Shown in pieces: positions 27,459 to 45,577 of a stretch of DNA of 64,000 nucleotides. The notes under the pieces were generated by a model. That model saw nothing but the letters and a program-made list of their open reading frames with translations, was not told the DNA's origin and did not search any database. Every line of letters starts with the position of its first letter. Within the stretch, counting starts at the first letter, position 1. The stretch comes from Octopus vulgaris (lineage: Eukaryota): assembly GCA_951406725.2 (NCBI GenBank), contig OX597814.1:32860001-32924000 (forward strand), written 5' to 3'. The translations under genes were made by a program, and so were the position numbers.

Positions 27459-27509
<51 letters not shown>

Positions 27510-27510
27510 T

Positions 27511-27945
27511 AGGACTGAACACGAAAAGGTGGACAGTCAACATGCTAGATATAGACGTCAAATCGCCATTCTCCACAAAGATTTTGTTCTCAAATAAAAA
27601 TAAAATTCAGCACGACCTAAAGCAATGGATGAGACAAAAGAAATATACGAAATGGAATAATCACCTACGTACCGTACAGTTTCAGCTATTAATATCACAA
27701 GGATATCTGTAGCTTCGTCAGCGTAGTTTGTTATGAGCATAATATGCTGTACTTTATTTTATTTGAGAACAAAATCTTTGTGGAGAATGGCGATTTGACG
27801 TCTATATCTAGCATGTTGACTGTCCACCTTTTCGTGTTCAGTCCTTAATTGGTATATATAAATATTTTAATTTTCGGATTCTTTTTAATGTGCTAGACCA
27901 CTGGTTTTAATTGACTAATATCAATTTTTACCCTTAATTTTTAAA
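27511..27945. mobile_element. Miniature PLE-like insertion: ~94-bp inverted repeat, hammerhead-containing spacer and one-sided tail
   Basis: 27511-27604 is the near-perfect reverse complement of 27753-27845; tail to ~27945; (TA)n on both sides. Confidence 0.8.
27665..27726 (-). ncRNA. Type I hammerhead ribozyme motif
   Basis: Minus strand CTACG-CTGACGA-AGCTA...TAGCT-GAAAC-TGTACG-GTA-CGTAG: perfect 5-bp helix I, helix II, full core and GUA cleavage triplet. Confidence 0.85.
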
Positions 27946-28037
27946 TATATATATATATATATATTTTATTTACTAATTTGTGTATTTTTCCCTCACGGGC
28001 TACTTTTTACTGGAAGGCAATACTTTGTATTGCATTA

Positions 28038-28097
<60 letters not shown>

Positions 28098-28183
28098 TAT
28101 GTGTGTATGTGTGTGTGTGTATGTGTGTGTGTGTGTACCAGTATGTGTATAAACATATACATTTCTATACATATGCTATGTAT

Positions 28184-28472
28184 ATACAAAATTAAGAGGA
28201 ATGACCGCTAAAGTAGACACCTAATATGCTAAACATAGACGTCAAAACGCCGTTACCACGAAGAGTGTGTTTTCAAGAAAAAGATTATTCTTGATAACAC
28301 ACTCTTCGTGGGAACGGCGTTTTGACGTTTATATTTAGCATATTAGGTGTCCACTTTAGTGGTCATTTCTCATAATTTTGTATGTAACAATTTTTAATCT
28401 TCGGGTTTCTGAAATATGCTAACCCACTGGTTTTAATTGATTAATGTCAATTTCTATCCTTATTATTTTATA
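28184..28472. mobile_element. Miniature PLE-like palindrome with one-sided tail
   Basis: 28184-28279 is inverted against 28288-28383; arm and tail are homologous to the 27511-27945 element (GACGT..ATAT.TAGCAT, CCACTGGTTTTAATTGA). Confidence 0.75.
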
Positions 28473-28485
28473 CTATGTATGTATG

Positions 28486-28516
<31 letters not shown>

Positions 28517-28619
28517 ATATATATATATATATATATATAGATAGATAGATAGATATAGATATATATATACATATATATATATACATGTATATATACATGT
28601 ATATATATATATGTATATA

Positions 28620-28733
<114 letters not shown>

Positions 28734-28778
28734 TAGATAGATAGATCGATAGATATAGATATATATATACATGTGTAT

Positions 28779-28826
<48 letters not shown>

Positions 28827-40959: not shown

Positions 40960-41068
40960 TAGAAATTCGGGGTGAGTACTTGATAATTATAAGCACCTGT
41001 GTATACCGTTTGGTGGTGTAGGTGGTGGAGTAAATTGATCAAAATAAAAACATGATGCGAAGGATTCA

Positions 41069-41146
41069 GCGGTACATATGTTTCGGGCCTTTATTAGACA
41101 GATTTATAACAATGCATAATGTATGTCTGTGGCCTTCTTCAGCCGC
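41069..41146 (-). ncRNA. Type I hammerhead ribozyme motif in PLE pseudo-LTR
   Basis: GCGG-CTGAAGA-AGGCC...GGCCC-GAAAC-ATAT-GTA-CCGC; palindromic ACATATGT helix III. Confidence 0.8.
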
Positions 41147-42989
41147 GCACAACAGCTTCCACAAGGACATGTGTTACATCAAAAATTCTTGGTTGGGGAT
41201 GCAAATCCTCCCATTCGCGTACGACATAATGCGGCAGCAGCATAGAATTGAAGCGTCCATCTCTTTCTTCTCTCAATGTAGGATGAGGAAAAATGGATGT
41301 TGAAGTAATGTAAATAAATAAATACATGTATATACGTGAAGATGGAGGGACGAGAATTCAGGATGAGGGATAAAAAATGTATAAAAAGTGTAAGTATAGA
41401 AAAATATAAAAATGTAGAGCATAAAGATATAAAGAGATATAAGGAGATGTAAAGGGGGTATAAAGAATATAAAGAAATATAAAGAAATATAAATAAATGT
41501 AAAGGCATAAGGTTATAAAGTAAAAATAGAAATAGAAATAAAAATAAAAGTAAAAAAACATGATAAAAATGTAACAAAATATAAAAAAATATAAAGATAA
41601 GGGATGTATAGAGGTTAAGGACCAAGCATGGTGGTCAGGAGATTGATAAAATTTAGTTGTAGAATTGTCAGTAAATCAACAGTTTCGTCTGGGGACCTAA
41701 TGCGTTGTAAATCAGAGCTGTTGAGCGTTTAATCTGGTTCCTTGAATTATTTGGACTTCTAGTACATACATACCAACATGGATACACACACCCATATACA
41801 CGCGTACATATACGCCTCCAAGCCTATAAGCATACACACGCACTCGCGTGTAAACATGCATATAAACACACACACACCCACACGCACGTGCGTACACATA
41901 CATACATACAACAGAATATCCGCATGTATACACGGACACTATACGTGTACACACTCACATGTACATACGCGCGCCCATCCCTACATACACACATGCATAT
42001 GCCCACGCTTCCAGGTCTAGATATAAGATATTAAAGGATGTATATAAGAGCGTATGTAAGGAATCACGTCTATGCGTGCACGCACACACGGCTGTGTGTA
42101 CGTATGTGCGTGCACATATACACCTACACACACACACAGAGACATATGGGTATAGCTATAAGATATCAAAATATGCATGTACATATATGCGCGCGTTTAT
42201 GTATGTATGCGTATACATACGTACACGGACGCTCGCATAGTCAAAAGTGGATCTATAGGTAAGTAAATAAACATATATAGAGATGTAAAGCGATAAGTTA
42301 GGGGTAAGAATGAGGGTAAGGGTAAAATTAGAGATAAAAGTAAGAAATACAGTATAAAATAAGAAATACAATGTAATAGTTAGAAATGAAATATAAAAAT
42401 TATAAAAATTATAAGAGTTAAGGTAAGGGATGAAAATGAAAATGAGAATAAATGGAAGTAGAATAAGAGTAAAAATAAAATAAAATAAAATAAGATAAAA
42501 ATATAATTTAACATGAGATGAAGGTGGTTGAAAGTTAGAGGTGTGTGTTAAAAGTGTCCACGTAGGGGCGGGCGGGGGGAACTGAAAATTGGAAGGGTGG
42601 GAAGTGGAGTTTGGCGGTGTGCGTTCAACATCCGAGTTAGAAATGTGAAAGGGTATAGATATAGGGAAGTAAAGAGACTATATAGGAAGGATATGGGTGT
42701 AGGAGAAGAAATATTTAGGGAAAAGAAGTCATGTATGGAGACAAAATTTGTATATATAGGAGGAAAATGCAGGGAAACATATATGCACATACACACACCC
42801 ACACACACACACACACACGCACATATATATATATATATATATATGTACATATACGTACACATATGTGCACATACATATACATACACACACACATACGCAT
42901 ATACACGCACATATAGGAAAGCGGGATGTGCTGGAGCCGACAGGTTGCACCGGGTGGGAGGAAATTGCATGGGGGAGTTGGTATAAAAC

Positions 42990-44953
42990 CTAAGCTTTGT
43001 AGTATTTGAAAGTATTAATAAGTTTGTGTATACAGGATGGTTTGAACTCTGACCTTTTGTTAATAAGATTGTGTTTGTCTTTGAATTTCAAGATGTTCAG
43101 GAGTTCTACACAACATAGTTGGCATCCTGCTCTATTATTTAAATAAGGTGCAGCTGATCCGATGATGGACCATCTGAGTTTGAAGCCTATACATTTGTCT
43201 TTTAATTCCCAAATTCTTTTAGAAAGGGAGGTGCTGTTAGCCTTATGTCTGTGTCTCAGCGAGGACCGGTGGTTGTAGTATCTGGATTTCCAGGAGGTTG
43301 AGCAACCAATATAGGTGAGTGTGTTAAACTGAGTACTCACCTCACATGAATATATTACGTTTTTCGCCCTACATGCGCCCTGCAGCGGGCACTCTGATGC
43401 ACATCTGCAGTTGCATTGCATTGCATTATTCGGTCGTGTGCTGCTAATCCTAGGCGGAGGTGTTGCAATACGAGTGGGGGCGTTGATATCCTCCTGGTTG
43501 TTGATGGGTGTAGTATTTCCTCTGTTGTGTTGGCGGGTGTTATTACTAACTGTTTGGGTAGTATGGCTGCCAGTCTGGTTATATTGTCTACTGTCTAGAT
43601 GAGGGGGTTCTGTTGGTCGCTATGGTTTGCTCTTGATCTAGCTGTTCTAATATTAATATAGTTATGTTTAGCTATGAGGCAGCTCATGTTGGGCAGGGTA
43701 GAGTAGGAAATCCTAATGGTTTTGTTGGAGAAGATACTTCTATACTTGTGGGTGGGTGGGAAGTTGTTGGAAATGATAGAGAATATTCTCTTACATAACT
43801 TACCCCTAACTGCTAAGTTGTAAGGTAAGTTGAACCATATGTATTTGCGTAATCTATTATCCCTTCTATTTCTCCTAATAGGATCTATATTGCTCTCGTC
43901 GGGAGGGTTACTATTGTGTGCTATTCTATTAGTTCGCCTATTTCCTATACGTTGTTTGGAGTTTAAATTAGAATTATCGCTAGTGTGAGTTGAGTGCTGA
44001 GTTCGATTATAATTGGGAGTTTTATGGCAGACGGACGCTCCCGGGTGGTCTACATATGATATTCTCTGGTTATACCCGGCACTATAGAGAGCCTGGTTGT
44101 AGTGTTGTGCGTGATTATTGAAAATTTCTCTATTAGAGGATAGTTTTGTCAGTCTGTTGAGATGGCTTGGACCGTGGTGCTAATTATACAGGGTGGATGG
44201 TTGGAAGAGGTATGGATGTATTTGGTAGTTTCTTCGGGTTTCCTATACGGGTGGTGAAGGTGCTTATTCAAGTCTAACGTAACATCTAAGAAGTTTACTA
44301 TTTTAGTATTGGTCATAAATTCTAGTTTAAGATTGAAGGATTTGAAAAAAGCCTGATCTTTTTCCTAATTCTTTCTAGTTTACTCCTATTGTTGGTGAGG
44401 TATATGAAGAGAGCGTCGTCTCTGTATAGACCCCCCTGAAGATCCGGTACCTCGGAGAAAAGCTTCTTGAGCAGGTAGGCCCCGACCAAGTCAGTCACCT
44501 GAGCTGAATCGCTCGAGCCCATAGCCACATCAAAATTGTCGGGGGTATCGGATCTGGTCCAGAGTCTACCGTCGAATTCTATTATGGTTTTTCTAGCTAA
44601 TAGTATTATGTCAATTTTTTCTCTGTCTATGAGTGAAAGGTTGCGGGCAAATATAAGGGATTTGTTAAGTAAGATGGGGGATATACTGGCGTAGTAGCTA
44701 GCTATGTCGAATTGGATGAATGAGTAGTCGGGCCTATTGGTGATAGTGTTAAACCATTCTAGCACATCGTCGGTGTTAATCCATAGTTGGAGTGGGATGT
44801 GGGGTTTGATGTGTGGGATCACCTTGTCCAGGATAGTCTTGCTAAGTCTGCCGATATCCGATTTAGTCGGACAGATTAATCGTACTCCTACATTATCTGG
44901 GAAGTCTTTCTTATGGTCTTTAATAGTAATTTTGGGTACTTGTGGTTTAATAA
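42990..44953 (-). pseudogene. PLE reverse transcriptase + C-terminal GIY-YIG endonuclease, with a few frameshifts
   Basis: IKDHKKDF, FDIASYYASI, AMGSSDSA, LYRDDAL, NFLDVTL, SNHPP, WFNLPY, SYSTLPN; endonuclease CNCR..CPLQGAC..VIY..YIG..R..H..CQLC..NKRSE. Confidence 0.92.
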
Positions 44954-45263
44954 CCCTTTACATCTCCTTATATCTCTTTATATCTTTATGCTCTACATTT
45001 TTATATTTTTCTATACTTACACTTTTTATACATTTTTTATCCCTCGTCCTGAATTCTCGCCCCTCCATCTTCACGTATATACATGTATTTATTTATTTAC
45101 ATTACTTCAACATCCATTTTTCCTCATCCTACATTGAGAGAAGAAAGAGATGGACGCTTCAATTCTATGCTGCTGCCGCATTATGTCGTACGCGAATGGG
45201 AGGATTTGCATCCCCAACCAAGAATTTTTGATGTAACACATGTCCTTGTGGAAGCTGTTGTGC

Positions 45264-45341
45264 ACGGCTGAAGAAGGCCACAGACATACATTATGCATTG
45301 TTATAAATCTGTCTAATAAAGGCCCGAAACATATGTACCGC
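45264..45341 (+). ncRNA. Type I hammerhead ribozyme motif in the inverted pseudo-LTR
   Basis: CGG-CTGAAGA(45268-45274)...GAAAC(45326-45330)-ATAT-GTA(45335-45337)-CCG. Confidence 0.8.
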
Positions 45342-45356
45342 TGAATCCTTCGCATC

Positions 45357-45577
<221 letters not shown>

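Follow-up and report, generated by a model that had tools for sequence, protein, structure and literature searches.

Two foldbacks in 64,000 nt of Octopus vulgaris DNA (contig OX597814.1; this whole stretch is hereafter the window) are, judged by sequence, truncated insertions of a tandem hammerhead unit of the non-LTR retrozyme kind. We consider it quite likely that both are 5′-truncated, head-to-head retrozyme insertions written into (TA)n by the RT/GIY-YIG protein of a Penelope-like element (PLE) acting in trans. The octopus unit is a new retrozyme family, and its insertion anatomy makes the route of mobilisation testable. The case for how animal retrozymes move has so far rested on co-occurrence and pLTR phylogeny; the dispersed octopus copies bear their own PLE-type insertion scar, with its start sites mapped, alongside young and intact Hydra-clade ORFs.

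Two incomplete copies of a tandem unit

Both foldbacks of the original prediction were found in TA-rich DNA, related but diverged (74–78% alike) and 232 bp apart, close to the 240 bp first given. The predicted layout, an inverted repeat of ~95 bp with a tail on one arm only, was also recovered, but the tail of element 1, put at 90–100 nt, measures about 82 nt. The arms of element 1 (27491–27612 and 27745–27865) are 94% identical over 123 bp and 96% over a 107-bp core. Those of element 2 (28181–28282 and 28291–28386) are 89% identical, and its tail extends to about 28471. The features of the window are listed below, where E1 and E2 are the two fixed 3′ ends and U and U2 are the tandem units described thereafter.

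27462–27505, strand not applicable: (TA)n target tract preceding element 1
27491–27753, − strand: element 1, E1-ending arm (U 162–424), 98% to the unit from tandem locus L010; its last 7 nt (TATATAT) are indistinguishable from the TA flank
27665–27726, − strand: type I hammerhead motif with intact core; predicted cut after GUA, between 27670 and 27669
27745–27948, + strand: element 1, E2-ending arm (U 303–506), 97% to U
27866–27948, + strand: element 1 tail, the 82 nt separating E1 and E2
27965–28040, + strand: 3′-end fragment of a third hammerhead-bearing and unrelated family, lying within the same TA tract; matches the end of the L147 element at 81% (E 9e-19)
28181–28282, − strand: element 2, E1-ending arm (U2 339–440), lacking the hammerhead, 87% to U2
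28282–28471, + strand: element 2, E2-ending arm and tail (U2 336–527), 86% to U2
27948–27964, 28041–28100 and 28469–28826: other TA-rich tracts
40962–45363, − strand: PLE assigned to the Hydra clade (RT, CxCX5C linker, GIY-YIG; a frameshifted copy)
41069–41146, − strand: hammerhead of the 40962–45363 element, intact core
45265–45340, + strand: hammerhead of the 40962–45363 element, intact core
12463 (−), 16708 (+), 26816 (+) and 39817 (−): degenerate or minimal hammerhead-like candidates in other repeat families

The fragment at 27965–28040 sits between elements 1 and 2, and the hammerhead of its family (L147, L150) has a GUC site; TA tracts gather the ends of several families. Elsewhere, the window contains a U6 snRNA match (1644–1747, + strand, 102 bits) and frames at 179–919 (−) and 2536–2997 (+), which we take to be like LINE 3′ zinc-knuckle and ORF1-like regions.

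In the genome, matches to element 1 stop at the junction and recur at a spacing of 507–508 bp. At locus L010, a 507-bp unit, U, is repeated in direct tandem; it has 35% GC, a hammerhead core at 194 and a predicted cut after 246. Arrays of this unit reach about three units, with consecutive intact hammerhead cores. Element 2 belongs to an older subfamily whose unit, U2, is ~530 bp long (534-bp period) and has its own hammerhead, though element 2 has none. Element 1 contains 345 of the 507 nt and one ribozyme motif. Both elements stopped early and therefore neither could give a full monomer: they are incomplete stumps.

The longest ATG-initiated ORFs in the units of the two subfamilies are 56 aa, in U, and 53 aa, and no RT or endonuclease (EN) was found inside the arms of the loci screened. 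On these two grounds, the unit appears to be non-coding and without an LTR layout, and the prediction of no coding sequence held. In the assembly searched (2.8 Gb, 227 contigs), the young helix II motif has at least 57 exact matches and a 29-nt tail motif at least 1,341, consistent with the large, non-autonomous, hammerhead-bearing family originally proposed. Young copies have a median identity of 96.8% to U. Contigs from four runs that we guessed to be RNA covered parts of the unit, the hammerhead region in two of them; strand, ends and circles are invisible in these contigs.

Conservation of the hammerhead

The hammerhead on the minus strand (27726–27665) was the sole match of a strict scan of the window and is as had been described, with helix I CTACG/CGTAG, core CTGACGA, helix II AGCTA/TAGCT, GAAA and a GUA site. 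Its helix III, CTGTACGG, is weak and self-complementary. A relaxed scan detected three cores in the window versus one in total over 20 shuffled windows, a count that is not a probability. Against the "about nine" motifs claimed for the 64 kb, we found these three intact cores and the four degenerate or minimal candidates listed above. According to Rfam, no hammerhead family lies on 27665–27726, nor does one occur among 150 of the 172 rows for the window.

Helix covariation, whose absence, along with a lack of cleavage, was to count against the original prediction, was found. In a set of 20 variants hand-picked from 59 rows, a choice that favours paired variants, 95% of cells were paired and both sides had changed in 8 of 14 pairs, spanning three helices; slid controls were 23–37% paired. 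This covariation points to a conserved hammerhead structure. In the predicted fold of the monomer, helices I and II form and helix III does not (z −1.8), while the helix III segment is predicted to self-pair as a dimer (−14.0 kcal/mol). Such a weak, self-pairing helix would fit the dimer model of hammerhead activity as given in the available text of Cervera and de la Pena 2014 (PMC4209133). In the accessible part of a recent preprint, only one of nine Xenopus retrozyme dimers cleaved (Li, Clavereau and Pollet 2026, bioRxiv 10.64898/2026.07.22.740005).

Insertion anatomy across the genome

Across copies, the 3′ ends fall at two fixed positions, E1 (U424) and E2 (U506), 82–90 nt apart, while the 5′ ends and inversion points vary from copy to copy. 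We scored two sets of loci. The young set comprised 53 loci selected through hammerhead or unit matches. The tail-motif sample was blind to 5′ ends and comprised 80 of the first 100 listed matches, after omission of 8 loci already examined, 4 second matches falling within an already sampled locus and the last 8; it is blind to short E1-only or E1/E1 copies and can detect E2/E2 copies.

Among the 53 young loci, 27 were single-armed, 22 of them ending at E1 and 5 at E2; a tiny inverted E1 stub was present in 2 of these 5. The remaining 26 were inverted: 20 E1/E2, 1 E1/E1 and 5 with one eroded or rearranged end. The tail-motif sample yielded 47 simple two-armed, 30 single-armed and 3 complex loci, and an intact hammerhead core in 17 of the 80. 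The simple two-armed loci divided into 39 E1/E2, 1 E2/E2 and 7 with eroded ends. TA-rich DNA adjoined 67 of 76 E1/E2 ends. The copies thus have the AT-rich or (TA)n target of a PLE-type insertion, together with its inverted truncated copy and one-sided tail bounded by two fixed starts. At one locus (L006, C11:60396651–60398739), the inverted duplication includes flanking DNA and the E2 arm lies 627 bp later.

Whether the inversion points were fixed or variable had been posed as a check, and they proved variable: the junctions of independent copies are unlike one another. The foldback must therefore be made afresh at each insertion and, because the junctions differ between copies, is not the self-propagating miniature element that had been suggested. 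Of the 132 arms in the tail-motif sample, 23 cross the unit boundary, and all re-enter the previous unit. Only 6 of the 132 have a 5′ end within 6 nt of the predicted cut site; the young set, where selection on the hammerhead introduces a bias, had 0 of 84. Since arms cross the cut site without a pile-up, the template would be an uncut multimer or a ligated circle. Exact microhomology showed no excess at the inversion junctions scored (10 of 19, values −14 to +6).

The passes inside one insertion differ at 97 of 9,285 positions (~99% agreement), and a private variant common to all passes was present at 9 of 35 loci. This agreement fits one template molecule, and equally a single unseen donor or gene conversion. 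In the old subfamily, the arm-versus-arm comparison gave 52 shared versus 556 arm-only variants, later mutation swamping the signal. Five of the nine all-pass private variants, numbers too small for a conclusion, are T>C on the ribozyme strand (L004, L029, L130, L133 and L135).

Coding Penelope-like elements of the Hydra clade

The original prediction likened the layout of the foldbacks to that of the coding PLE at 40962–45363. The layout does match, as this element has an inverted end and a tail of ~85 nt, but the two have no detectable sequence in common. Coding Hydra-clade elements have a two-end, (TA)n-targeted layout like that of the retrozyme, with a similarly long tail: 16 of 18 ends lie either 22–33 nt or 107–153 nt past the element's own hammerhead. 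The 40962–45363 element illustrates what sort of enzyme source we have in mind, its role as partner being putative.

According to the available text of Craig et al. 2021 (PMC8557442), the Hydra clade is defined by DKT, CxCX5C, CxxC..CxH and RWK-like motifs and a (TA)n target, and only a few of its families are reported outside cnidarians. The octopus coding elements carry DKT and CxCX5C, and CxxC..CxH was present in the five ORFs checked; RW[KR] is absent from the 842-aa ORF of the 40962–45363 element's own family. From the motifs in intact ORFs, we assign this element and its relatives to the Hydra clade. Neptune had been considered as the partner and was dropped for Hydra because of the motif check. 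Pfam and PDB sequence searches with the coding PLE returned nothing informative. Young families have intact ORFs of 842 and 717 aa; copies of the 842-aa family are 96–98% identical, a level similar to that of the young retrozyme copies, and all 150 scored matches to the 717-aa family were at 99–100%. A hammerhead pattern scan yielded no motif assignable to the latter. Besides window 40962–45363, Hydra-clade families were seen at L139, L142, L145 and L280–L285.

Weighing the alternatives

The inverted arm could have arisen by an antisense-template or snap-back route of the kind proposed for Penelope, as far as the available text goes, by Arkhipova et al. 2013 (PMC3846280). The retrozyme and enzyme would be the same, but the inverted arm would be self-primed, templated by the first cDNA or by an antisense strand, and would end at a TA-like, target-annealing E1. 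Near-palindromic junctions, found in 15 of 39 pairs where permutation gave a mean of 6.2 and never as many as 15 in 5,000 trials, are explained equally well by this route, and the containment of the E1 arm within the E2 arm in 24 of 39 pairs and the near identity of the arms of a single insertion also favour it. However, the E1 arm outreaches the E2 arm on the 5′ side by >20 nt in 15 of these 39 unbiased pairs, and reaches past it in 8 of 20 young pairs and in element 1. An E1 arm that extends further 5′ could not have been made by folding back on the tail arm and copying it, and element 1 therefore needs two RNA-templated starts. Moreover, the finding that 22 of the 27 single-armed young insertions end at E1 implies that E1 is itself a priming site. 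We therefore regard self-priming as unlikely.

Another proposal, that the foldbacks are extreme 5′ truncations of a coding PLE, would require an unsampled full-length family, with the tandem units as pLTR-derived by-products. The shared layout speaks for it, as does the Xenopus precedent, in which annotated repeats, almost all of them PLE pLTRs, match 24 of 57 retrozyme families (bioRxiv 10.64898/2026.07.22.740005, available text). No pLTR homology to U was detected in 26 coding PLE loci (20 related to the 40962–45363 element and 6 of a second, very young family), a sample drawn from thousands of candidates, which leaves this proposal some room. The best local likeness to the end of a coding element was reached in 2 of 200 shuffles, in 1 of 10 comparisons, and was non-significant after correction. 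The suggested check, whether arms link to an RT ORF, gave no link: a co-linear RT and GIY-YIG ORF was found in none of the 80 tail-motif loci, 30 subfamily-2 loci and young loci screened. In 3 of the 80 loci, non-homologous RT/EN fragments occur nearby, either with TA in between or in a head-to-head joint. Because the long arms re-enter the previous non-coding unit and no homologous parent was found among the 26 coding loci, we consider truncation of a coding PLE improbable, more so than self-priming. An origin at the DNA level, as a foldback or MITE-like family or by local tandem amplification through unequal crossover, the hammerhead being simply carried along, is very improbable and already largely refuted. 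The elements do look like short inverted repeats, and the best 29 distinct matches to element 2 are similar in size, though chosen for that. Yet every independent copy has another junction, the ends are asymmetric (E1/E2), many copies are one-armed and the arrays are dispersed, each with fresh TA flanks. A fixed foldback family was rejected, no constant internal junction being found across copies.

One head-to-head joint stands apart. At L199:2490–4350, an E2-ending retrozyme arm abuts, without intervening TA, the endonuclease and 3′ end of a diverged coding PLE. No close relative of this PLE piece was found (best 79%), and the junction, at 1 of 80 loci, is a possible two-template chimera.

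A model for retrozyme insertion

Insertion by a PLE enzyme in trans, the reading we prefer, could proceed as follows. Transcripts of the tandem arrays would be cut by hammerheads acting as dimers, and the resulting monomers may be closed into circles. An enzyme, probably of the Hydra clade, would nick both strands of a TA tract, and each freed 3′ end would prime cDNA synthesis on the RNA, in most cases with E1 as one start and E2 as the other. The cDNAs would extend over variable distances, beyond the cut site into the next unit, and then be joined head to head, whereas priming from one end alone would leave a single arm, mostly E1. The available text of Frangieh et al. 2024 (PMC11167929) describes a PLE protein that, in vitro, cleaves and extends the two strands of AT-rich DNA, initiating on the RNA at the two sites between which the tail lies; ribozyme cleavage was dispensable. 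By analogy, we infer that the same two-start chemistry may act on the retrozyme in trans.

More tentatively, and with rather less than even confidence, we suggest that a dimeric Hydra-clade RT/endonuclease captures circular retrozyme RNA unrelated to its own element and copies it from both DNA ends, starting at two fixed sites and continuing through the ligated ribozyme junction. If so, the unit would be a minimal 500-nt substrate accounting for the Penelope tail and inverted end generally, and a circular RNA would be seen being written into an animal genome.

Comparison with known systems

In L1 twin priming, two target ends prime cDNAs that are joined head to head. By comparison, the two start positions in the octopus copies are fixed, and arms overlap on the unit in most cases; the strict end-to-end geometry occurs in 3 of 39 pairs.

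Cervera and de la Pena 2020 (PMC7229834) described metazoan non-LTR retrozymes, with molluscan examples among them, together with the proposal that PLEs mobilise them, and in the available text of the 2026 preprint (bioRxiv 10.64898/2026.07.22.740005) a PLE origin of vertebrate retrozymes is supported by distribution and pLTR phylogeny. Like these, as far as the sources extend, the octopus family consists of non-coding tandem units of low GC (30–35%) with one type I hammerhead each, is dispersed as monomers to multimers and co-occurs with PLEs. Its unit is 507–534 bp, versus 150–450 bp (PMC7229834) and 51–972 bp (the preprint). No pLTR homologue was found here in the 26 coding loci. Paired fixed 3′ ends, a tail, inverted arms and (TA)n targeting are present here and are described for no published retrozyme in the available texts; in that of the preprint, 'tail' is absent and 'inverted' occurs once, in a reference title. 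A search of literature that lacked most subscription journals and preprint supplements yielded no description of paired fixed ends for retrozymes or of an octopus retrozyme. Thus the retrozyme class and its Penelope link are already published, and the insertion anatomy described here was not found in print. The preprint text does not decide between local growth of arrays and fresh insertion.

The octopus unit also resembles Chlamys elements such as MRC1, which, in the available text of Craig et al. 2021 (PMC8557442), are non-coding and have pLTRs and head-to-tail multimers made through PLE machinery. In these non-autonomous elements, the 3′ end resembles that of the autonomous partner, and most Chlamys elements lack hammerheads, whereas the octopus unit has a hammerhead and no matched partner.

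The closest correspondence is to insertions of EN+ PLEs (PMC8557442, PMC3846280 and PMC11167929, available texts), which share with the octopus copies partial tandems, an inverted 5′-truncated copy, (TA)n targets, a one-sided tail between two RT start sites and a sense hammerhead upstream of the ends. Unlike EN+ PLEs, the octopus unit has no ORF, its hammerhead lies 178 nt upstream of E1 versus about 30, and its tail is 82–90 nt versus 30–40 nt in the published elements. The pairing of E1 with E2 is relevant to how the unexplained tail and inverted end of PLEs arise.
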